From NCBI GenBank assembly GCA_005893185.1, contig VBOS01000149.1, positions 1 to 25,064 of the forward strand: 25,064 bases of DNA, given 5' to 3'. Every line of letters begins with the position of its first letter. Position 1 is the stretch's first letter. This document shows positions 14,699-25,064 of the stretch, piece by piece. A model generated the notes under the pieces. It made no database searches, was not told the DNA's origin, and was given only the letters and a program-made list of their open reading frames with translations. Both the position numbers and the translations under genes were made by a program. The DNA is from Candidatus Eiseniibacteriota bacterium. Its GTDB lineage: Bacteria; Eisenbacteria; RBG-16-71-46.

Positions 14699-14705
14699 AT
14701 GGGTC

Positions 14706-14801
14706 CTACCGGATCCGCTTCTTGTGACGGTTCTTCCGCAGGCGCTTCTTTCGCTTGTGGGTCGCGATCTTCTTGCGCTTGCGTTTCTTTCCCGAGCCCA
14801 T
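14706..14801 (-). CDS. 31-aa Lys/Arg-rich AURKAIP1/COX24 (DUF1713, bS22/mS38-like) small ribosomal-type protein
   Basis: Below the ORF-track cutoff. Manual translation gives MGSGKKRKRKKIATHKRKKRLRKNRHKKRIR*, with SD AAGGAG. It matches the recalled GKKRKR.K.ATHKRKKRLRKNRHKK signature. Confidence 0.85.
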   Translation of the reverse strand: MGSGKKRKRKKIATHKRKKRLRKNRHKKRIR

Positions 14802-14833
14802 CGGATCTCCTTGTCGCGGTTTCGTCGAGCGAC

Positions 14834-15139
14834 CTACCGAACCACGGTCTCTTCCGGTTCCACGCTGCCCAGGACCTGGGCCTTCAGTTCCTTGCTGGGC
14901 TTGAAGAGCGGAACGAGCTTGGCGGGCACCATCACCTCGCCGCCGCTGCGCGGGTTGCGCGCCCGTCGCGCCCGTCGCTCGCGCACTTTGAATGTGCCGA
15001 AGCCGCGGATCTCGAGATGCTTGCCCTCGGTGAGCGCCTGGCTCACCACCTGGAAGAGCTCCTGCACGATGATGCCTGTGTGGCTCTTCGATACGCCGGT
15101 TTCCGTCGCGATCGTCTCCACGAGCTCGGCCTTCGTCAT
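14834..15139 (-). CDS. hup: Histone-like DNA-binding protein HU/IHF family (101 aa)
   Basis: Start ATG 15139 with SD AGGAGG. MTKAELVETIA...LEIRGFGTFKVRERRARRARNPRSG..V.VPAK.VP.FKPSKELK. Confidence 0.93.
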   Translation of the reverse strand: MTKAELVETIATETGVSKSHTGIIVQELFQVVSQALTEGKHLEIRGFGTFKVRERRARRARNPRSGGEVMVPAKLVPLFKPSKELKAQVLGSVEPEETVVR

Positions 15140-15150
15140 GGGGTCCCTCC

Positions 15151-15696
15151 TCAGGATTTCGGGTTTCGCCCTGTGGTGCTCACTGCTGCCGGCACACGCA
15201 ATCCGGTGAGCCGCATGGGCCCGGAGCCTTCTCCGGCCGCTGGCCCACGACCGCAAACGCGGAGAGCTGCCGCTGGACCTCGCGCGCCCCGCAGTGCGGG
15301 CACGGCGGGCTTGCCTCGTCCGCGCGCGCCTGCAGGTTCTCGAAGCGCTTCCCGCACGATGCGCAGTGGTACTCGAAAATCGGGATCGTCCCTCCTCGCG
15401 CGGCCTCCCCACGCCTCCCGCGCCTCGCGGCGCGAAATGCGCGACCGCAATGTAGCCACCACGACCGTGCGGATCGCGCCGCGTGGGCGGCGCAGCACCT
15501 GCGCCGCGCTGTTGCCTTCGTCCACCACCAGCACGCGATCGCCTACGCCCGCGTCCACCACGTCGACCGCCAGCATCGGCTGGCCCTTCGGGCTGCCTGC
15601 CACGTCCACCGGCTGGACGAGAAGCAGCTTGTGGGCCGCGAGGTCACCGTGCTTGATCGTGGCGACCACCTCCCCCACCACCCGCGCCGTGATCAT
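15151..15696 (-). CDS. BMC-P shell vertex pentamer (EutN/CcmL family) #3, normal C-terminus lost with read-through
   Basis: MITARVVGEVVATIKHGDL..KLLLVQPVD...AVDVVDAGVGDRVLVVDEG.SA. Homology stops at IRTVVVA (about 15454), where the usual (G/A)IVD strand is missing. The ORF then runs out of frame over the zinc-ribbon gene. Confidence 0.85.
   Translation of the reverse strand: MITARVVGEVVATIKHGDLAAHKLLLVQPVDVAGSPKGQPMLAVDVVDAGVGDRVLVVDEGNSAAQVLRRPRGAIRTVVVATLRSRISRREAREAWGGRARRDDPDFRVPLRIVREALREPAGARGRGKPAVPALRGARGPAAALRVCGRGPAAGEGSGPMRLTGLRVPAAVSTTGRNPKS
15180..15386 (-). CDS. FmdB-family zinc-ribbon protein (68 aa) with apparent ATC start
   Basis: Not in the ORF track. (I)PIFEYHCASCGKRFENL...CPHCGAREVQRQLSAFAV...CGSPDCVCRQQ* matches the MPxYEYxCxxCG..FE.L...CPxCG...R.LS.F pattern. 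AGGAGG (15391-15396) sits 4 nt before ATC at 15386-15384. Confidence 0.8.
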   Translation of the reverse strand: MPIFEYHCASCGKRFENLQARADEASPPCPHCGAREVQRQLSAFAVVGQRPEKAPGPCGSPDCVCRQQ

Positions 15697-16052
15697 CTCG
15701 CGGCTCCCGTCGACGGAGCGGGCCCGGTTGCCGGAGGCGGGCCCGACGTGGGCCCGGCCGCGCGTCCCGGCGGCGCGGGATCGAGTTTCTCCTCGCGGAG
15801 GTGGTCCACGATCCCCACGATCGCTGCATCGGCGGGATTGTCGGTGTTCGGGAGCGCCATCCCCGCCTCCCGGGCGCGCACGTAGAACACCTGCTGACCG
15901 GGCGCGGCCGAGACCAGGTCCACCGCCACGAACGGACGCCCCTGGTCCCCGCCCGACGTGTCCGTCGGCTGCAGGAGAAGGAGCCGGTGCCCCTTCCACG
16001 ATGGGACCTTCTCGGTGCAGACCACCGTTCCGATCACGCGCGCGAATCTCAT
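15693..16052 (-). CDS. BMC-P shell vertex pentamer (EutN/CcmL family) #2 with Pro/Gly/Ala-rich tail
   Basis: MRFARVIGTVVCTEK...LLLLQPTD...VAVDLVSAAPGQQV...ADAAIVGIVD, then a low-complexity tail. ATGA overlap with the next gene. Confidence 0.92.
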   Translation of the reverse strand: MRFARVIGTVVCTEKVPSWKGHRLLLLQPTDTSGGDQGRPFVAVDLVSAAPGQQVFYVRAREAGMALPNTDNPADAAIVGIVDHLREEKLDPAPPGRAAGPTSGPPPATGPAPSTGAAR

Positions 16053-16071
16053 GCGGGCATCGTCGCCGGCA

Positions 16072-16638
16072 TCATCGCTCGGCCGTCGCCCCCAGGATCT
16101 TCGCCTTCATCTGCGCGTGGAGCCGCGGCACCACCACCGAGCGCGTGAGCAGCCCGCGCTTCACGGCCTCGTCGCGTCCCGCTTCGATCGCGGCCTGCAC
16201 GTCGTGAACCGCGCCCGAGACGTAGAAATAACCCTTGCCGCCCAGCCCGTTGGCGAGCTTGATGTCGCGCACCACCACGTGGGCGGCCTTGGCGGCCTGA
16301 TCGGCCGCCACGATCGTGGCGGCAGCTGTCATGGTCTCGATCACTCCGAGCGCGTCGTGGTCCACCTTGGGAGCTGTGCCGGCCAGAGCCTGGAGCACGC
16401 TCTCGTGGATGTTGGGGATGAAGAGCGAATCGAGCAGCGTCTCGCCGGCCACGTCCACGCCGCGCCGGAACGATGCGCGCACCGGGCCGACCTCGCCGCC
16501 GATCAGCACCCAGTACTTGCCGGGCGAGAGCGTGCGGGCTTCCAGCAGCTCGACCTCGGCGGTCTTCACCATGGCGTCGCCGACCACGGTGCCCTGGGCG
16601 ATGCTGCTGGTCTCGATGGCGGCGATCGCGACCGGCAT
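16072..16638 (-). CDS. BMC-T tandem-domain shell trimer (PduT / single-layer type, 188 aa)
   Basis: Start ATG 16638 (TGATG overlap with the aldehyde dehydrogenase stop). Two BMC domains: IETSSIAQG..VGDAMVKTAEVEL...PGKY.VLIGGEV and ALGVIET...I.AADQAAKAA.V...GLGGKGY..VSGAVHDVQAAIEAG. Confidence 0.92.
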   Translation of the reverse strand: MPVAIAAIETSSIAQGTVVGDAMVKTAEVELLEARTLSPGKYWVLIGGEVGPVRASFRRGVDVAGETLLDSLFIPNIHESVLQALAGTAPKVDHDALGVIETMTAAATIVAADQAAKAAHVVVRDIKLANGLGGKGYFYVSGAVHDVQAAIEAGRDEAVKRGLLTRSVVVPRLHAQMKAKILGATAER

Positions 16639-18050
16639 CACACGATCCGGAAGTGGTCGACCAGGGTGCAGCGCCGGATGCGCGTGAAGCTGCGCGCGGT
16701 GGTCATGCCTTCGCCCGTGGGGCTCGCGATCGTGAAGCTGGTCGGCCCCTCGCCCCCGAATCCCAGGCCCGCGAAGTTGGGCCCATTCTTGACGAAGATC
16801 GAGCAGTCGCAGGCCCGCGCCATCTTCGAGAGCTTGTCGATGTTGCGCGAGTGCATCGAGGCGGTGTGGCGGTAGCCGTGCTCGACCGCGATCGCGAAGT
16901 CGATCGCCTCGTCGCATGTGCGCACCCGCGTGATCGGGTAGACCGGCATCATCATCTCGGTCCACAGGAACGGGTGGTCGTTGTCCACCTCACAGACCGC
17001 GAGCCGTCGCGAAGGATCGCACGGGATCCCGGCCTCGCCGAGGATCTCGTGCACGTTCTTCCCCACGTACTTGCGATTGATCACCGCGTACTTGCGCGGA
17101 CCCTGCTCCTTCTCGAGCAGCATGCCGCGCAGCTTCTCGGTCTGGTGCGGCTGGAGCATCACTGCGCCCGCGCGCGCGAACGCCTCCTTCAGCCGGTCGG
17201 CCACGATCGAGACCACGATCGCTTCCTTCTCGTCGGTGCAGATCACGTTGTTGTCGAACGATGCGCCTGCGATCAAGTCGCGCGCCGCCCGGTCGAGATC
17301 CGCGGTCTCGTCCACCACCGACGGGGGATTGCCGGGCCCGGCCGTAATCGCCTTCTTCCCCGCGTTCAGGGCCTCGCGCACCACCGCCGGCCCGCCGGTC
17401 ACAACGTTCAAGCGGATGCCCTTGTACTTGAGCAGCGCCTGGGCGATCTCGAGCGTCGGCTGCTCCACCGAGTGCAGCAGCGGGAGCTGCGAGCCCGCGC
17501 GCCGGGCCGCGCGGTTGATGAGGTCCACCGCCAGGTTCGAGACCTTGCGCGCGTTGGGGTGCGGGCAGAAGACCGCGGTGTTGCCGCCCGTGATCATCGA
17601 GAGCCCGTTGTTGATCACGGTCTCGCTGGGGTTGGTGACCGGCGTGATCACCGCGATCACGCCGTAGGGCGCGCGCTCCATCAGCGTGAGCCCGTGGTCG
17701 CCCGTCCAGGTGAACGGCTCGAGGTCCTCGGTGCCCGGCGTCTTCTCGGTGACCAGCTTGTTCTTGAGGATCTTGTCCTCGACCCGCCCCAGACCGGTCT
17801 CGGCGACCGCCAGCTCCGAGAGCGTCTTGTAGTTGGCAGCCAGGGTTTCGCGCGCGGCAGCGAGGATGCGCTTGCGGGTCTCGAGCGGGGTGCGCTCATA
17901 GGCCTCGAATGCCGCGCGGGCGGACTTGACCGCAGTTTCGAGGTCGGGGTGGATGCCGAGCAGCGGCTCGGCCCCCGGCTTGCCCACGGGCCTGCCGTTC
18001 TCGAGCCGCTCGAGCACGTCGGCCACGATGGCTTCGATGCGCCGCTCCGT
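16638..18050 (-). CDS. BMC-associated CoA-acylating aldehyde dehydrogenase (EutE/PduP family), true start codon apparently missing
   Basis: GLTLMERAPYGVIAVITPVTNPSET, NVVTGGPAVV, AGPGNPP.VVDETAD, catalytic SFDNNVICTDEKE, TEMMMP and GFGGEG..SFTIA.PTGEG. In-frame sequence upstream of GTG 18026 reads TERRIEAIVADVLERL, an encapsulation-peptide-like helix. Confidence 0.92.
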   Translation of the reverse strand, partial: TERRIEAIVADVLERLENGRPVGKPGAEPLLGIHPDLETAVKSARAAFEAYERTPLETRKRILAAARETLAANYKTLSELAVAETGLGRVEDKILKNKLVTEKTPGTEDLEPFTWTGDHGLTLMERAPYGVIAVITPVTNPSETVINNGLSMITGGNTAVFCPHPNARKVSNLAVDLINRAARRAGSQLPLLHSVEQPTLEIAQALLKYKGIRLNVVTGGPAVVREALNAGKKAITAGPGNPPSVVDETADLDRAARDLIAGASFDNNVICTDEKEAIVVSIVADRLKEAFARAGAVMLQPHQTEKLRGMLLEKEQGPRKYAVINRKYVGKNVHEILGEAGIPCDPSRRLAVCEVDNDHPFLWTEMMMPVYPITRVRTCDEAIDFAIAVEHGYRHTASMHSRNIDKLSKMARACDCSIFVKNGPNFAGLGFGGEGPTSFTIASPTGEGMTTARSFTRIRRCTLVDHFRIV

Positions 18051-18321
18051 CCTTGCCGCCGATCTCGACCGCGTCCACGATGCCGCAGATCACGGCGTCC
18101 ACCGGCTTCTCGCGGGACATTTCCGTCATGCGCGCCGAAGAGCCTTGCGCCACCAGCACCAGCTCGCCGGTCCCGGCGCCGACCGCGTCCGCCGCCACCA
18201 CGTGGTTCCCGGTGGGCTTGAAGTTCCCGTCCACCTCGCGCACCAGCAGCAGCTTGAGCGAGAGCAGGTGCGAGTCCTTCCGGGTCGAGACCACCGTCCC
18301 CAGCACTTCCGCCAGGATCAC
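17896..18321 (-). CDS. BMC-P shell vertex pentamer (EutN/CcmL family) #1, stop apparently lost at about 18051 with read-through
   Basis: MILAEVLGTVVSTRKD..L...KLLLV...VAADAVGAGTGELVLVAQGSSAR...PVDAVICGIVD.VE. The domain ends at IGGK (about 18052), and the remainder is an Arg-rich out-of-frame overlap with the dehydrogenase. Confidence 0.9.
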   Translation of the reverse strand: MILAEVLGTVVSTRKDSHLLSLKLLLVREVDGNFKPTGNHVVAADAVGAGTGELVLVAQGSSARMTEMSREKPVDAVICGIVDAVEIGGKDGAAHRSHRGRRARAARERQARGQAGGRAAARHPPRPRNCGQVRPRGIRGL

Positions 18322-18329
18322 GGCCGCTC

Positions 18330-18629
18330 CTACTTCTTCGCCGCCGCTCCGGTCGCGCGGATCGGGAGCACGTCTTCCAGCATCGGGTGCGGCCGCGGAA
18401 TGACGTGGACCGAGACCACCTCGCCGACCTTGGCAGCTGCAGCTGCGCCCGCTTCAGTGGCTGCGCGCACCGCCGCCACGTCGCCGCGCACGATGGTGGT
18501 GACGTAGCCGCCGCCGATCTTCTCGTAGTGCACGAGCTGGACTCGCGCGGCCTTCACCATCGCGTCCGAGGCCTCGACCATCGCCACCCAGCCGCGTGTC
18601 TCGATCAGTCCCAGGGCTTCTTCGTTCAT
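18330..18629 (-). CDS. BMC-H shell hexamer, canonical EutM/PduA-like (99 aa)
   Basis: [25 protein letters not shown]...[22 protein letters not shown]......[20 protein letters not shown]. Confidence 0.96.
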
Positions 18630-18651
18630 GCCTTGCTCCTTGCCGAGAGGA

Positions 18652-18954
18652 TCAGTACATGCGGGGCGTCCGGAACACGCCCGGCCCCGCGAGAGAGTCT
18701 TCCATCTGGCTGTCCGGCGCAGGGATCACGTGCTTCGCCAGCAGCTCCCCCACGCGCGCAGCTGCGCTCGCACCGTGCTCGACCGCCGCCTCGACCTCGG
18801 CGACGTCGCCGCGCACAGCGACCGTGACCAGCGCCGCCGCCGTCACCTCGTAGCGGATCAGGCGCACCTGCGCGGTCTTGCACATCGCGTCGGCGGCCTC
18901 GATCGCCCCGACCAGTCCGCGCGTCTCCACGAGCCCCAGGGCTTGCTTGGCCAG
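18652..18954 (-). CDS. BMC-H shell hexamer, divergent (probable CTG start at 18954; alternative GTG 18993)
   Basis: [27 protein letters not shown]...[17 protein letters not shown]....[25 protein letters not shown] (18961-18967) lies 6 nt before CTG, giving (M)[12 protein letters not shown]. Confidence 0.92.
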
Positions 18955-19017
18955 CGCCTGCTCCCCCGATGAGGACGAACTCCATGCGGCCACGGCAGCT
19001 ACCGGGGCGCGCGCCGC

Positions 19018-19046
19018 ACGCTATCAGGGATGGGGGGAGGGGTCAA
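19018..19046 (-). promoter_or_regulatory. Sigma70-type promoter of the BMC operon
   Basis: Minus strand TTGACC (19046-19041), exactly 17 nt, then TAGCGT (19023-19018), with an extended -10 TGn immediately upstream. Predicted TSS near 19011. Confidence 0.65.
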
Positions 19047-19216
19047 CGCGCATCTGCGTGTGAATTGGGAGTTTCGCAACGTCTGTCGGGTCGCGGCCGT
19101 GTGGAATATCGCGAGCGAGGTGCCGATGACCGGGGCTTGGAGGGTGGGCCCGGCCGTTCGTAGGCTGGGTTCAGCCGAGCAAAGCGAGGGGGAGCGATGC
19201 AGAGCGGAAGGATTGC

Positions 19217-20225
19217 ATGAAGCTGCCGCGAATCCTGCCACTCGTTCTCCTTGCTCCGCTGAGCTTCGCCTCTCCCCCTGCGGCAGACCCGGCCGCGGCG
19301 GATTGCGACCGGGTGCTCTGCTATTTCGCCTGCACACTGAGCAAGGTAGAGTGGCGCATTTACGATCCGGCTCGCGGGACCGACAAGACGTTCCTCACGC
19401 ACGCGCAGCCCGATGTCGTCCGCTGGGATTCCTCGATGACCCGGGTGGAGTACCGGATCGGCCGCGAGGTCTTCGAGGTGGATTGGAAGCTCGGGGCGAA
19501 GCCGCGTCACGCCGTTCGCCTGCCGGAGGTCCGGGGGATGGAGGATTGGTGGTTCAATCCCGACAGCTCGTCCTGGCAGCTCTGGACCATGGCCCCGCTG
19601 CCGGGGGGACCGGACCGGCCCGAGTACAAAGACTGCCGCGACGAGCTCTGGCAGTCATCTCGCAACGGGACAGACTGGCATCTCGTCGTCGCGGACACGG
19701 AAGATTGCCGGGGCTGGTACGAGGGTGATTTTCGCCCCAGCTTCGAATCGGACCCGCGCGGGGGATCGAGAATGCGACGCGCGCCGGCCGTGACGCCGGG
19801 CAGCCTGACGCAAGACCTGTCACCCCAGTCGGACGGCGCCGAAACGGGTCGAGTCGCCTCCAGATTGCGAATTCTCTTTCTACTTCGTCCCCTCGCGCAC
19901 GGTTTCGCAGCGTGGAACCATGTTCCGGTACTGCGATTGTCCACCCGAATCGCCCCGAACCCTCCACCCGGTCTACCTGGCCGACCGGGAGCATGGGACG
20001 CGCACTCTGCTCTGTGGGCCGGAATCCTGCCCCGAAGAGATATCGGGGAACAGCATCAGCGAGGAGTGCGGCCTGTTGCTTATCGCCTGCAGCATCGACA
20101 CGACACGCCTCGTCGATATCCGGACGGGGAGAGACGTGAAGCTAGTGGGCAACTCGACCGGACTTCGGCACGGGGGACTCGTGATGGGGATCGACGCGTT
20201 CTGGGGGCCGCCCCTGAAACGATAG
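19217..20225 (+). pseudogene. Secreted Cys/Trp-rich hypothetical protein, probable frameshift near 19847
   Basis: Signal-peptide-like MKLPRILPLVLLAPLSFAS and SD AAGGA. Protein-like sequence continues after ...SPQSDGAET in the 19920..20225 frame (VESPPDCEFSFYFVPSRTV...GLLLIACSIDTTRLVDIRTGRDVKLV). Removing one G from GGG at 19846-19848 would join the frames. Confidence 0.55.
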
Positions 20226-20256
20226 GCGGGCACTAGAGGCCGGTCCGCTCCAGGAG

Positions 20257-20367
20257 AAAATCATGGGCCCCGGCCGCGATGCGTGTTGTCGTGCAGGGGT
20301 GCGTTTGCACTGCGGGCTCGGGGCCCCAAAAAAGTTCCCCACCATGACCGTGCGCCGGTCCGTAAGA
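20257..20367. repeat. Structured direct repeat, copy 1 (111 bp)
   Basis: Matches 24942..25053 with three differences (GGGG vs GGGGG, T/C at 20311, C/T at 20343). Contains nested inverted repeats and an A6 tract. Confidence 0.95.
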
Positions 20368-20388
20368 TCTCACCTCCATTCGACCCCC

Positions 20389-21702
20389 TCAGCTGCGCAG
20401 GGGCGCCGCCACTTTGCGGTGGGATGGCGCCAGAAGCGAGAGCGCGTAGCGCACCCGTTCCTCGAGTGAGGCCTCCGGCATGCTCTCGCACGCCTCGGCT
20501 GCCCGGCGAGCATCCGCCAGCCGGACGCCCAGCTTCCGCAGCCAGGGGATCACGTCCCGATCGTCCGTCTCTCCGAGCGCCCGTGCACCAACATGCCCCG
20601 GGGCATGCTGGGTCTCCTGCATCCGCCCGCGAGCCGCCGACCCTTGCGCGCCGTGTCCAGGATGCCCCGGGGCATGTTGCTCCTCGGCTCGCCGGGTCCG
20701 TGCCTCCTGCCGTTTGTGGTTCATGAACGTCGTTCCGAAGGCGCACGCGGCGGCGTACTGATTGTGGGCGCGGCACAGCAGCCGGAGGTTCGCCACCGTC
20801 GCCTGACCCCCGCACGCCACCGGATCCTCGTGGTCATACCCGAGCTTCCACGTCGCCGTGCAGCGCTTCCCAGCGTCGCTGACGAACGTGCACCGGCCCT
20901 GATCGCGCTCGCACACGGCGCGCTTGACCGCCGCCGGGATGTGGCGGGCGGAGGCTCCGCGCCGTGAACCCGACCGTGGCCGGGCCGTGGCCGCGAACTT
21001 CTGCTTCTCCTGCTTCTCGATGAACGCATCGACGCACCATTCGATCAGGGTGGCCAGGACTCCCGAGGGAAGCTGGTGGCTCGCCAGGGTCCGGGCGTAG
21101 CGGATCTTCTCCTCGACCCGCCGGGGAAAGCTGCACTGGAGGGCGGAGCGCTCCGCCGACAACGGCAAGATCCTGGCCTGGCCGCCGGGGGACTCCACAT
21201 GCCCCGGGGCATGCCGGGCCGCGTAATCACCCACGGGATCCGGAGCCTGCTCCCCGGTCGGCGCCGAGGTGTCTCCCAGTCGCGCAGGCAGGTCGGGCTT
21301 GGGGAACCGCTCGGCCAGCAGATGAAGGATTTCATCGCGGGTTTTGTGGGTGGCGGCCTCCAGCAGCTCGTCGGCGTTTTCGGGAGTCAATCGGGGCGCC
21401 AGGGTCACGACGCCCGAGAGGTGCAAGCGTCCCTCGGCCACCGCCGCGAAGATCGCGGGAAACTGGCGCGCCGCACGGGCGGCGTAGACCCGTTTGGAGG
21501 CTGCGTCTTCAGAGAAACGGAGCTCGCGGATGCAGTACTCCTTCATGCACGGATAGGCCGCCGGCAGGTAGAGCCTGCGCTCGTCGAACTCGGCGATATG
21601 AGCGAGGACATCGGCATCGGAGGCGCGTCCCCGCGCGACGACTGTCTTCAGGCTGCAATTCAACTCGCCGTCGCCGAGGTGGGTGAGCGAGTAGCGGTTC
21701 AT
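20389..21702 (-). CDS. HNH endonuclease with DUF222-like N-terminal helical region (multi-copy mobile-type family)
   Basis: Start ATG 21702 with SD GGAG. N-terminal LAHIAEFDERRLY...YC..EL.FSEDAA.KR..AAR.ARQFP.IF.A...GRLHLS. C-terminal RHIPAAVKRAV.ERDQGRCTF...RC......YDH..P...GG...VANLRLLCRAHNQY, with CxxC-like Zn ligands and an apparently intact HNH core. Confidence 0.9.
   Translation of the reverse strand: MNRYSLTHLGDGELNCSLKTVVARGRASDADVLAHIAEFDERRLYLPAAYPCMKEYCIRELRFSEDAASKRVYAARAARQFPAIFAAVAEGRLHLSGVVTLAPRLTPENADELLEAATHKTRDEILHLLAERFPKPDLPARLGDTSAPTGEQAPDPVGDYAARHAPGHVESPGGQARILPLSAERSALQCSFPRRVEEKIRYARTLASHQLPSGVLATLIEWCVDAFIEKQEKQKFAATARPRSGSRRGASARHIPAAVKRAVCERDQGRCTFVSDAGKRCTATWKLGYDHEDPVACGGQATVANLRLLCRAHNQYAAACAFGTTFMNHKRQEARTRRAEEQHAPGHPGHGAQGSAARGRMQETQHAPGHVGARALGETDDRDVIPWLRKLGVRLADARRAAEACESMPEASLEERVRYALSLLAPSHRKVAAPLRS
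20592..20607. repeat. Perfect 16-bp palindrome CATGCCCCGGGGCATG inside the HNH gene (copy A)
   Basis: Read directly from the sequence. Encodes HAPGH. Confidence 0.9.
20662..20675. repeat. 14-bp palindrome ATGCCCCGGGGCAT inside the HNH gene (copy B)
   Basis: Read directly from the sequence. Encodes HAPGH. Confidence 0.9.
21198..21213. repeat. Perfect 16-bp palindrome CATGCCCCGGGGCATG inside the HNH gene (copy C)
   Basis: Read directly from the sequence. Encodes HAPGH. Confidence 0.9.
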
Positions 21703-22016
21703 GACCCGAACTCCAGCGGGGGCTGGTCTGATCACGGGGCCGCGGGGGCGACGCTTCCTTGTATCACGAGGGTCCGCGGCGCTCTCAGGGCCGCGGAGAG
21801 CTCACGAAACGCTGCGGCGCGAGATTTTTCCTGGGACGCAACAGTTCAAGCGGTCCGCACGCGGCCGAGGCGCTCTGATGCCCGCCGACAGGAGCCTCAG
21901 CGAGGAAGGGCGAGGCGTATGCCTCAGGCTGTCAAGAGGGATTTTATCGATGGCGCCAGATTCTCGACGCACGCTGACCGCGAGGATCCCAGGTGGGGCT
22001 CAAGCAGCTCGATCCG

Positions 22017-24866
22017 TTACCGAAGCACCGCGACCCGAGCGCGGGCTACGCTCCCGCCCTGAGTGAGCCGGAGGAAGTAGATTCCAGGTTGAAGGGCTCG
22101 GGCTGCCGTGAGGTCGAGCGCGTGGATCCCCGGCCCGAACGTGCCCACCTGCCGCGCCTGCAACAGTCGCCCTGCCACATCCATCAGTTCAAGGCGGGCT
22201 TGGCTTCCGTCGCGCAGCGAGAACTCCACCCGGAGTCGGCCGTCCGCGACCGGGTTCGGGATCGCCCCTCGGATCGCCAGCGCGAGCTGCGCCGGTGCGG
22301 GGTCCCCGACGCCGACCGTGGCCCCGATCGAGAACGCCGGGCTCACGCCGAGAACGCCCTCCACGATGGCGCCGGTCTCAGCGGGGGATTCCAGCAGCAC
22401 CGCCACCTTCGCCTGGTCGGTCGGAACGCTCGGCACCGTCCAATCGAAGCTCCCGGTGTTGGGCCGCTGGCGGGCGATCGTGCTCCAGTTTACGCCGCCG
22501 TCGGGCGAGAAGAGCAGACTCACCGGTCCTGCCACGACACCGCCCGGTGTCTCCCAGCGCACCTGCGCAACAGAGCCTCCCGCGAGATGGCTGCCGGCCC
22601 GCGGGGCCGCGATCCTCCCGCGGCCTACGCGGATGGTATCCGTGCCGATGAAAGCGTGGCCGTCCAGCTTGCCTTTGATCCTGACCGGAACGCTGTCGCC
22701 TTCGGTTACGGCTAGCTCCACCGCGAGCCGGTCGAACTTCACCGTCAGATCAGGGATGCCATTCCCGTCGTGGTCCCCGAGCACGGTGGGAGCCTCAGGG
22801 TCCACCGGCACCGTGCCGTTCAGCCGGATCGACGAAATGTCGATGTCGCGGGCCTCGAAGGGCAGGGCGGGCTCGAGGAAGCCCGTCACCCACTTGCCGC
22901 GCGAGGCCAGGTTGAGCGTGCCGGGCGAGAAATCGAACGTCATCGAGATCGGGGGCGGTTCGAGCGCGTGTACTACGACGTCGCTCGGACTCCGGGGGCA
23001 GAGGCGGAACGTGCCGCTCGCGAAGTGCAGGATGCCGGTCACGTCGATGATCGAGCCCGAGTCCGGCGGGGCGTAGCCGTCGAGCACAGTGTTCAGGCTC
23101 GAGATCAGGATCGTGTCCTCGAAGGCGCAGCACGGCCCAGCGGCGAGGAAGCTCTGGCCGACGGCCCGCCGCTCCGCGACCCGCAGGTCGTGGACCTTGA
23201 CCAGCATTCCCTCCTCGTCCTCGCCGTTGTCGATATTCTGAGCCGCGTCGCAGGTCAGGTCCGTCAGCACGGTGATGTTCTTGTCGTCCCTCGGCGCAGG
23301 CGCCCGGACGGCCCCGAGGTCCCCGAGGAACACGTTGTTCACGATCTCGGTCTCGCCGCCGAACTCCAGGATCTGCCCCGCGACCAGGTACCGGTTGCCG
23401 ACCACGATGGGCGCGCGGGGACCGAAGATCGCGATGCCGCTCCGATCGGCGCCGTCGGCGTCCTCCATGTACTGCAAGGAGCCGAACTGCCCAACCCCGA
23501 CGCCGCGCACCGTGATCCGTGTGCCCGGCGAGGTCCCGGCGCCCGCGAAGCGCGACCGGTCGACGCACACCGTCAGGCTATCCTCGTCGGCCGCCTGAAC
23601 CTGCTTCACGTCGAGCACACCGTTGATGAACGTGCGGCTCTGATTCGCCATCAGACAATCCGGACAGATCTCCGACCCGATCCCGCCGGCCGTGACGGTC
23701 TCGATGTCACCGTCCCTCCGGACGCTGGTGATGTCGAGCAGCACCACGTGGCCTCCACCACCCTCCACCGTGGCAAGGTCCACGGTTGAGCCATCGATCT
23801 TCGAGGCGAGCGAGTAGTTGCGTTCGTCCTCGGCCGTCGCGACGTCCACGCGCCGCCCGAATTCGAGCCGCACCCTGGTGTTGCTGGTCCCGAGCGCGTG
23901 CGGCCCGTCCGGCGGGCCGGTGAAGCTGTCGTCGATCGGGTAGGCGTCCGTCAGGCTGGTCGCGAACGGTCCGAACAGGTCGTCGCTGTCGCGGACCTGT
24001 ACGCGGTAGGACGTGAACGACGGGTTGCCCGATGGACCCTGGTTCACGATGCCCTGCAACGAGTCGATCAGCGTGCCCACCGCCGGCGGCGTGAAGGTGG
24101 TGAGGGCGTTGCCGTCGATCAGGGTGCTGTCCGACGGGCTCGCCACGCTCACGACCAGGAACGAGCCGAAGGGAAGCCCGGGACGCCCGCCCTGAACCGA
24201 GGTGCGGCCGACGCGGAGCTGACCGCGAACCCGCACCAGGCAGGCTTCCCACTGCTCCTGGATCGCGCTCGTCGCGTTCGGGCTCGGAATCCAGCTCATC
24301 GACGTGGGGGTTAGAACCTGGAAGGGCGGGAGCGGGTTCCCCGAGCTGATCTTGCGGATGACGATGTCGTTCGTGCTCTGGACGACGTCGGGGCCCTCGA
24401 TCTCGGTCGTGCCGTTGAGGCTGGGGAACTCCTGCACGGTGCCGTACACGGCAACGCTGTCGCCGAGGTTGAGGCTGTAGGGAACCGCCTTCCAGTTGTA
24501 GGCGCCCGTGAACACCTGAACCCCGTTGTAGGGACCGCCCTGGCTGTTCTGGATGTAGAAGGCGTACGCAGCCGGCTTGGCGTCGAATCCGATGATGATG
24601 CCCTTGATGCCCAGCACCGTGTCCCCGGAGGCCGGGGAGAAAACCCTCGGGTGGCAAGGTGCGAGCAGCGTGTCAGGCTGCTGGACGTCGTAGATCCTGA
24701 GCGTGTCCGGACAATTTCGGTACGGAGGACCGGGCGGGTACTTGTCTCTCGAGTAGGCGGAACTTCCGGTGCATAGCAGCAGGGCGGTCGCGAGGAGGGC
24801 CTTGGTCAGGCTCCTCCGGTATGGGTTGGCAGAGAATTCAGGGACGCGGGCCGGGGCGGTGATCAT
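22017..24866 (-). CDS. Large secreted multidomain protein (949 aa): tandem OB-fold-like modules, Ig-like domains, C-terminal T9SS/FlgD-like sorting domain
   Basis: Likely start ATG 24866, followed by a signal-peptide-like LTKALLATALLLCTGSSAYS. Two repeats of I/V.DVQ...V.V.G.....Y.(Q/E)(N/D)..G...G(V/I).(V/I)F...G..V.V.G.(V/I).EF...TEI. C-terminus LAIRGAIPNP...VEFSL....ARLELMDVAGRLL...PGIYFLRLTQGG....RVAVLR. The ORF-track start at 25028 lies inside repeat copy 2 and is probably spurious. Confidence 0.85.
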   Translation of the reverse strand: MITAPARVPEFSANPYRRSLTKALLATALLLCTGSSAYSRDKYPPGPPYRNCPDTLRIYDVQQPDTLLAPCHPRVFSPASGDTVLGIKGIIIGFDAKPAAYAFYIQNSQGGPYNGVQVFTGAYNWKAVPYSLNLGDSVAVYGTVQEFPSLNGTTEIEGPDVVQSTNDIVIRKISSGNPLPPFQVLTPTSMSWIPSPNATSAIQEQWEACLVRVRGQLRVGRTSVQGGRPGLPFGSFLVVSVASPSDSTLIDGNALTTFTPPAVGTLIDSLQGIVNQGPSGNPSFTSYRVQVRDSDDLFGPFATSLTDAYPIDDSFTGPPDGPHALGTSNTRVRLEFGRRVDVATAEDERNYSLASKIDGSTVDLATVEGGGGHVVLLDITSVRRDGDIETVTAGGIGSEICPDCLMANQSRTFINGVLDVKQVQAADEDSLTVCVDRSRFAGAGTSPGTRITVRGVGVGQFGSLQYMEDADGADRSGIAIFGPRAPIVVGNRYLVAGQILEFGGETEIVNNVFLGDLGAVRAPAPRDDKNITVLTDLTCDAAQNIDNGEDEEGMLVKVHDLRVAERRAVGQSFLAAGPCCAFEDTILISSLNTVLDGYAPPDSGSIIDVTGILHFASGTFRLCPRSPSDVVVHALEPPPISMTFDFSPGTLNLASRGKWVTGFLEPALPFEARDIDISSIRLNGTVPVDPEAPTVLGDHDGNGIPDLTVKFDRLAVELAVTEGDSVPVRIKGKLDGHAFIGTDTIRVGRGRIAAPRAGSHLAGGSVAQVRWETPGGVVAGPVSLLFSPDGGVNWSTIARQRPNTGSFDWTVPSVPTDQAKVAVLLESPAETGAIVEGVLGVSPAFSIGATVGVGDPAPAQLALAIRGAIPNPVADGRLRVEFSLRDGSQARLELMDVAGRLLQARQVGTFGPGIHALDLTAARALQPGIYFLRLTQGGSVARARVAVLR

Positions 24867-24941
24867 GAGACGAGCCGAGCGTACTCCACGGCTGTGACAG
24901 GTTGCGACGCAAGTGAGGTCTGGGCGCGCATGGAGCATTCC

Positions 24942-25053
24942 AAAATCATGGGCCCCGGCCGCGATGCGTGTTGTCGTGCAGGGGGTGCGTTTGCACCGCG
25001 GGCTCGGGGCCCCAAAAAAGTTCCCCACTATGACCGTGCGCCGGTCCGTAAGA
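24942..25053. repeat. Structured direct repeat, copy 2 (112 bp)
   Basis: Near-identical to 20257..20367, same orientation, offset 4,685 bp. Confidence 0.95.
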
Positions 25054-25064
25054 CTCCTTCGCTC

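Follow-up and report, generated by a model that had tools for sequence, protein, structure and literature searches.

A duplicated 3' end of a predicted RNA gene brackets inserted genes in Candidatus Eisenbacteria

Islands and prophages that insert into the 3' ends of tRNA or tmRNA genes supply a new 3' end for the gene they occupy and leave the direct repeats attL and attR behind. The sigma-54-dependent small RNAs of bacteria, among them Qrr, GlmY/GlmZ, CrcZ and NrsZ, are another well described group. The locus described here shares features with both. It lies on a contig of Candidatus Eisenbacteria (VBOS01000149.1 of assembly GCA_005893185.1, here C108), whose complete 25,064 bp make up the window, that is, the whole stretch of DNA that was analysed. 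Close to its right end two direct repeats enclose a gene for an HNH protein and a gene for a secreted protein (SEC). Judged from comparison with relatives, the repeat represents the terminal 111 nt of a minus-strand gene for a structured non-coding RNA that is conserved in Candidatus Eisenbacteria. We file the finding as an RNA-gene 3'-end duplication that brackets inserted genes; its most useful by-product is the conserved RNA family.

The two repeat copies, copy 1 (20257-20367) and copy 2 (24942-25053), have the same orientation and starts that are 4,685 bp apart. Over 112 aligned columns they are 97.3% identical (blastn E ~1e-47) and differ by two substitutions and one 1-nt indel, which agrees with the pair with three differences that an earlier sequence-only reading of this DNA had described. 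They are the only copies in the 3.1-Mb assembly, and most other genomes contain one. This is not the picture of a generic, high-copy element resembling the repetitive extragenic palindromes (REP), a possibility which that reading had raised itself. Exactly two genes, both on the minus strand, lie between the copies: the HNH gene, whose stop codon is 21 nt away from copy 1, and then SEC, with a spacer of 314 nt between them. These two fill the interval, in which there is no room for a further open reading frame (ORF), a transposase or an integrase, so the enclosed content had been described correctly. A tRNA/tmRNA scan of the window gave no hit. A small protein encoded in the repeat was considered and dismissed, as the 1-nt indel shifts both candidate frames and the Shine-Dalgarno-like AAGGAG has no start codon after it.

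The metagenome-assembled genome (MAG) is fragmented (567 contigs, 80% completeness, ~70% GC) and the contig ends 11 nt past copy 2. These points, together with the little depth that public contigs give over 24844-25064, would favour an assembly artefact in which two strains were joined to a chimera. However, the copies differ at three sites and their flanks are unique, and a mis-join at copy 2 would need module-like sequence upstream of the secreted-protein gene. An independent contig of the Joint Genome Institute (JGI), which comes from a different strain (L142; 99.2% identical, 22 differences), carries a bacterial microcompartment (BMC) gene of the BMC-H type, the neighbouring gene X, the whole of copy 1 and the 3' part of the HNH gene. 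Since L142 joins gene X, copy 1 and HNH on one contig, both junctions of copy 1 are real and no artefact of assembly. As the contig ends so shortly after copy 2, the right-hand junction is supported by C108 itself and by its continuation into the conserved RNA core. An artefact is hardly credible in view of these data.

In relatives, the order of elements read along the minus strand of the window is a gene for an oligopeptide-type ABC-transporter ATPase, a promoter motif, the leader, the core and the terminator of the RNA, and a BMC operon. The promoter motif is a sigma-54-type -24/-12 element (YGGCAY-N5-TTGC); of the 60 distinct upstream regions, 57 have its GG-N10-GC signature, which lies 46-115 nt ahead of the first helix, and rpoN is present. 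The whole RNA would measure roughly 210-280 nt. A variable leader of ~35-100 nt is followed by a rod-like core of ~100 nt with the closing helix GUUCCCUG/CGGGGAAC, and the 3' end is formed by a GC-rich terminator hairpin and AUGAUUUU, where the conserved block stops. The repeat comprises the 3' strands of two long core helices, a small hairpin and the whole terminator hairpin with its U-tract (model positions ~65-176).

A DNA search of 60 relatives detected the element, with 71-85% identity and nearly always as a single copy, in 19 of the 36 genomes that belong to the same family and in none outside it. The covariance model R1 is more sensitive; it was built from an RNAalifold structure, has a length of 176 positions and yielded 79 matches, which were aligned. 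It detects the RNA in 79 of the 89 family genomes, among them all 44 high-quality ones, which have a single copy, and in all 28 genera, and weaker single matches occur in other families of the same class. In the R1 alignment compensatory changes are seen in 29 of 52 pairs as compared to 13.9 in shuffled alignments, and 94% of the cells pair versus 36-51% when the partners are slid. The structure becomes visible by comparative analysis only, folding Z-scores of single sequences being unremarkable (-0.05 to -2.6). One local helix, UCGUGAU/AUCGCGA, was rejected because its 5' side varies while the partner is invariant.

Searches against Rfam 15, at gathering as well as permissive thresholds, gave no credible match for the window, for the repeat or for the loci of six relatives. 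6S RNA, which maps elsewhere in this genome and in four relatives tested, was discarded as an identity. The same is true for the signal recognition particle (SRP) RNA, which maps elsewhere in these four relatives but was not detected in the incomplete MAG studied here. A literature search on Eisenbacteria and microcompartments gave nothing that bears on the RNA.

Three further occurrences are worth recording. In another Eisenbacteria family the same core is clearly recognizable (G150:C1 1910898-1911021, locus L180; 53.8 bits), with a different terminator and an OPT oligopeptide transporter gene after it. One genome contains two full tandem copies of the RNA, 528 nt apart (G034:C82 2507-3213, L047 = L107). 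A diverged paralogue with a different terminator (G005:C124 60185-60332, L179) is located near ORFs for a secreted protein, a thioredoxin-like protein and an S10 carboxypeptidase-like protein.

The two copies in the window are not equivalent. The native 3' end of the RNA gene (24942-25064, minus strand), which includes copy 2, covers model positions 54-176 of 176 and scores 90.5 bits with the covariance model, the 5' part being cut by the contig end. The 11 nt beyond copy 2 continue the core block that is invariant in all relatives, whereas the flank of copy 1 does not. At all three sites where the copies differ, copy 2 is identical to the ortholog from the same genus. By all these signs copy 2 is the genuine end of the native RNA gene, within which the contig breaks off. 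From the 123 nt and the synteny we infer that the RNA gene stays intact through copy 2. Copy 1 (minus strand) contains the small hairpin GACCG/CGGUC, the terminator hairpin with AUGAUUUU and the 3' halves of helices 2 and 1, whose 5' strands are lacking; its homology to the model is limited to the 3' 111 nt. A G-to-A change (RNA sense) disrupts one terminator pair, and strain L142 has two further private changes in copy 1. Copy 1 is evidently a drifting pseudo-copy of the 3' module of the RNA, which would now serve at most as a terminator for HNH.

The corresponding loci of relatives show what the site looks like without the insert. In about 85 related loci the element is present once, the BMC operon comes directly after it, and in none of them does HNH or SEC adjoin the RNA; these loci are therefore empty sites at the level of both genus and family. 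In ten relatives with long flanks the counterpart of window positions 14,700-19,050, which contains the BMC operon with its neighbours, borders on the RNA, with 15-480 nt between terminator and operon and no likeness to 19,051-24,941. A core-motif search in 66 species genomes gave the same arrangement: in nearly all loci with enough downstream sequence BMC-H follows 280-870 nt past the motif, and no homolog of HNH or SEC was found at the RNA locus of any of these genomes. As far as DNA comparison goes, the ~4.6 kb between the RNA terminator and copy 1, that is the SEC gene and the HNH unit, are shown to be a lineage-specific insertion. Of the two proposals in the sequence-only reading, the first, a repeat-bounded segment that can be gained, survives in a weak form only, which is backed by the empty single-copy loci.

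The second proposal took the repeat as the 3' end or the cognate RNA of an HNH element. It does not agree with the distribution of either partner. The RNA, which 79 of the 89 family genomes possess, is never a neighbour of HNH, and the HNH unit recurs in other contexts without the repeat. As the RNA is conserved without HNH and HNH is mobile without the repeat, an RNA-guided or repeat-ended HNH system is not supported. A second HNH element, which was expected just past the window edge, is not what relatives have at this place; there the remainder of the RNA gene is found with its sigma-54-type promoter, and then the ABC-transporter gene.

The HNH unit itself (20389-21839, minus strand) has a size of 1.45 kb and contains an ORF for 437 amino acids (20389-21702) and ~137 nt of conserved upstream sequence. 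The start was placed at 21702 and not at the GTG at 21735, because the family consensus begins with MxxYSL. The protein is composed of an N-terminal DUF222-like helical domain, the HNH core and a C-terminal helix bundle similar to RuvA domain III. D290-H291, N314 and four cysteines of the core are invariant in 35 sequences. In these 35 family members PF01844 (HNH) is matched by 11, PF14279 by six and RuvA_C (PF07499) by 11; the protein of the window reaches only E = 0.11 in the HNH-core Pfam test. The DUF222-like label given earlier stands on likeness in fold and sequence to DUF222-named AlphaFold clusters, as none of the 35 members matches the Pfam model itself (PF02720, E <= 0.01). The fold model (predicted local distance difference test, pLDDT, 77.8), in which the domains at both termini are helical, matches AlphaFold clusters that bear the names HNH endonuclease and DUF222. 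To the latter, Foldseek aligns residues 6-182, 6-195 or 6-207, with template modelling (TM) scores by hit of 0.48-0.56 and 18-33% identity. Residues ~380-437 (20389-20600) resemble the RuvB-binding domain III of RuvA, and all PDB profile matches of this part are RuvA (E = 0.04-0.2). The tail hints at a selfish nuclease that recruits the branch-migration machinery.

Its distribution speaks for independent movement. This genome contains eight matches, and 31 of 40 relatives from two families have 5-21 diverged copies per genome, some with internal stops; more than 1,900 homologs are present in the protein collection. The closest homolog (L173; 72% amino acid identity) is located beside an aminotransferase gene and is devoid of the RNA module. 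Its nucleotide sequence is 79% identical to the window over 21839-20417, and the limits of similarity, 20417-21839 with L173 and up to ~21830 with the paralogues, define the unit. Flanking direct repeats are absent at 27 of 29 HNH loci of relatives and were not seen at the other HNH loci of this genome; one locus (L146) has a weak flanking pair of 48 nt with 75% identity. The HNH gene is, on this evidence, a selfish, separately mobile unit, to whose machinery the repeat does not belong.

Within the HNH gene the 14-nt palindrome ATGCCCCGGGGCAT is present three times (20592-21213; at 20593, 20662 and 21199), each copy being read as HAPGH in a linker. Besides these three there is no occurrence in the 3.1-Mb assembly. 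The homolog in L173 keeps two copies of the 20-mer (829-848 and 1414-1433). The palindrome could be a target of a nuclease or methylase or a recombination site within the selfish unit.

Could the HNH protein nevertheless have produced the duplication? The nuclease would have cut the RNA gene near GGAGUC/UUACGG, and repair would have copied in the HNH-bearing segment together with a long target duplication. The short distance between the HNH stop and the repeat boundary, a multi-copy family whose many fragments at contig ends fit mobility, and the RuvB-binding-like C-terminal domain in 11 of the 35 members would suit such an event. However, the lack of direct repeats at 27 of 29 relatives' loci and at the other paralogues, and the closest homolog next to its aminotransferase gene without any such module, do not agree with it. 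The unit boundary at ~21839 leaves the secreted gene outside, and the second genome with a partial duplicate (L089, see below) has no HNH. We regard an HNH-driven origin as improbable.

We favour, with somewhat more than even confidence, the explanation that copy 2 is the native RNA end and copy 1 its duplicate, and that the insert arrived by att-type integration into the 3' end of the RNA gene. Three observations lead to this. First, the stretch of identity begins inside the gene and stops in both copies precisely at the final U of the terminator, where the gene has its functional end. Second, in a different genus (L089) a partial RNA copy extends from about the same internal point (ACGGAC) through the terminator. 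The spacer of ~180 nt between the full RNA and this partial copy contains a same-orientation NHL-repeat remnant (PF01436, 20.7 bits), which is consistent with a decayed secreted-protein gene. Third, the spacer past the terminator is a hypervariable hot spot. It harbours a small ORF in a congener and an insertion sequence (IS) in L126. In L092 the RNA is kept without a BMC operon at the site, where a secreted S8 subtilase with an FlgD_ig domain is found instead.

For the mechanism itself we infer the following course. A circular DNA with the SEC gene and its own RNA 3' module would recombine with the chromosomal RNA gene, supply a replacement 3' end as the islands in tRNA and tmRNA genes do, and leave the direct repeats as attL and attR. 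The recombinase would have acted in trans or would have been lost since then. The HNH unit may be a later, independent hitch-hiker in the 3' spacer of the island.

Several points weigh against this course of events. No integrase or recombinase was found in the interval or in the window, and SEC and HNH match no recombinase family. The viral contigs of IMG/VR contain no match to the module. In contigs of four soil runs, which are short, of 2-10x depth and unable to show rare forms, no empty, excised or circular form of this strain was seen. The partial duplicate is present in only two of ~90 genomes, and its boundary in L089 is blurred by divergence (75-79%). The full tandem copies in G034/L107 mean that the region duplicates by other routes too. 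To the left of copy 1 lies the lineage-specific gene X and not the ancestral flank, which requires at least two events. Finally, the 5' part of the RNA gene beyond the contig end (5' core, leader and promoter) is not assembled in this MAG, in which contig C176 resumes the synteny ~2.7 kb further on.

The main rival is a local duplication that came first, by slippage or template switching at the long GC-rich hairpin, with SEC and HNH landing later and independently and without any site-specific recombination. Duplications of the RNA do recur, as in the tandem copies in G034/L107 and the short-range partial copy in L089. In addition, run X3 contains a joint of 20278 to 24941, derived from a more abundant relative, in which 39 foreign nucleotides separate two terminator 3' strands, and the HNH unit is demonstrably mobile on its own. 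On the other hand, three or more separate events in one spacer would be required. The approximately shared internal start of both partial copies and their common end at the transcript end would be left unexplained, and so would the fact that in both genomes the copies enclose a secreted-protein gene or what remains of one. A local duplication is possible, in our opinion clearly on the unlikely side.

A retro-copy would start from a 3' fragment that processing had released from the RNA, reaching from a cleavage site to the terminator end, and would involve its reverse transcription and insertion. It would account for the end of copy 1 exactly at the U-tract and for the internal start that is approximately common to L089. 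However, it does not explain the position just past the inserted genes and next to the parent gene in both genomes; furthermore, no reverse transcriptase was seen in the window and dispersed copies exist elsewhere in none of the genomes. This origin appears very improbable to us.

The favoured integration into the RNA 3' end can also be taken further. The RNA 3' module might be a dedicated attachment site at which integrase-less cassettes with secreted-protein genes are captured behind the RNA promoter, in a tRNA-island-like or integron-like manner; the recombinase could even be the HNH protein. We consider such a specialised system rather doubtful. No third, degenerate copy of the module was detected between gene X and BMC-H or past the subtilase gene of L092, and an nhmmer profile of the 3' module found in all fetched loci only the two copies of the window and the known tandem copies.

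The candidate cargo, SEC (22017-24866, minus strand), encodes a multidomain protein of 949 amino acids with a signal peptide and a C-terminal type A sorting domain of the type IX secretion system (T9SS), which scores 28.1 bits with TIGR04183 (cut-off 23). The protein also resembles, weakly, the N-terminal part of ExeM/NucH. The nearest homologs, in genomes of the same genus, are 59-61% identical and are found at other loci without HNH. SEC is an accessory paralogue of a large Eisenbacteria family.

Gene X (19217-20225, plus strand), which is convergent with HNH, codes for a secreted protein of 335 amino acids with a signal peptide and was assigned to no family. In C108 one extra A at 19842 causes a 1-nt frameshift, while the frame is intact in L142 and in run X3; the extra A would be either an assembly error or a strain-specific frameshift. 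Relatives have no DNA homologous to gene X between the RNA and the BMC operon. At another locus (L143, ~1330-1390) a homolog of gene X (49% identical) is followed by an apparent 3' half of a tRNA with T-arm, acceptor strand and CCA, for which ARAGORN calls no gene. This arrangement fits X-type genes that ride on tRNA-integrating islands.

The BMC operon (15151-19020, minus strand) was assigned by Pfam and synteny and comprises two BMC-H proteins, an aldehyde dehydrogenase, BMC-T and EutN-type vertex proteins. It has no obvious signature enzyme, and it is conserved and syntenic throughout the family, downstream of the RNA with the sigma-54-type promoter. Further away, between 4400 and 5500, a minus-strand ORF of 615 amino acids shows internal repeats with a period of 261 nt; these are probably repeated protein domains, unrelated to the RNA and HNH.

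What could be the role of the RNA? An attenuator would be in keeping with its terminator and with its fixed place in front of the BMC operon. The BMC genes of the window, however, are still intact, with 5.9 kb and a copy of the terminator now lying between them and the RNA. The RNA is kept without a BMC operon at this site in L092 and in L097, where HU and RNB genes follow it directly, and in another family it precedes a different gene. We lean towards a free-standing RNA, that is, an independently functional, probably sigma-54-dependent RNA tied to peptide or nitrogen metabolism. The OPT gene after the RNA in L180 and the opp genes upstream of it in the family of the window suggest a link to peptide uptake.

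This RNA would be a new, covariation-supported family absent from Rfam, core to at least one Eisenbacteria family and probably class-wide. With its position among genes for peptide uptake, proteases and microcompartments, it is a candidate for motif curation and for work on nitrogen and peptide regulation. If the integration was site-specific, RNA genes other than those for tRNA and tmRNA would join the list of landing sites, and a handle on gene flow in a phylum known from metagenomes only would be gained. For annotators the locus illustrates that a repeat beside a selfish HNH gene need not belong to the HNH gene.

Compared with known systems, the locus resembles IscB and its omega RNA (HEARO) in the combination of an HNH motif and a structured RNA nearby. 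The protein differs in that it has no RuvC domain and no RuvC-like fold among its top fold matches; the NCBIfam model for IscB (NF040563) gives 16.2 bits with a cut-off of 175 and covers residues 258-333, the HNH part, only. The RNA differs as well, since it has no Rfam HEARO match and is a host gene which is HNH-free in relatives. With the DUF222-HNH genes of the mycobacterial REP13E12 type the HNH unit has in common the size of ~1.4 kb, the N-terminal helical domain in front of the HNH core, the many diverged or broken copies and the lack of inverted terminal repeats. In contrast to these, the Pfam DUF222 model is not matched, there is an extra C-terminal domain similar to RuvA domain III, GC palindromes are present in frame, and the host belongs to the Eisenbacteria and not to the Actinobacteria.

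Integron cassettes are also similar in some respects. Like attC, e.g. the Vibrio repeats (VCR) of ~120 nt, a structured imperfect palindrome of ~110 nt brackets a same-orientation gene after a promoter-proximal site, and gain as a circle is the common idea. Here, however, a single "cassette" is present, the repeat belongs to a functional RNA gene, the R/L-box pattern of attC is missing and no array exists in ~90 genomes. ORF and Pfam analysis of the window and of flanks in relatives revealed no IntI integrase; no dedicated IntI search of the genome was made.

From the sigma-54-dependent small RNAs, terminator-ended leaders and riboswitches the RNA is set apart by the lack of any sequence or model match in Rfam and by its restriction to Eisenbacteria. 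It shares with them the -24/-12 type promoter, a structure that is compact and conserved, the intrinsic terminator, the single conserved locus and neighbours related to nitrogen and peptides (the opp ABC transporter, the OPT transporter and proteases).

The islands in tRNA and tmRNA genes differ from the present case with respect to the target, which is here an RNA with a sigma-54-type promoter, the integrase, which is absent, and the size of the insert, which is only 4.6 kb; excision would be putative. The remaining features correspond well. In both, the repeats correspond to the 3' portion of an RNA gene, the identity block stops at the functional gene end, the gene is intact on one side with a displaced fragment on the other, relatives have empty sites, and the inserted DNA carries accessory cargo.

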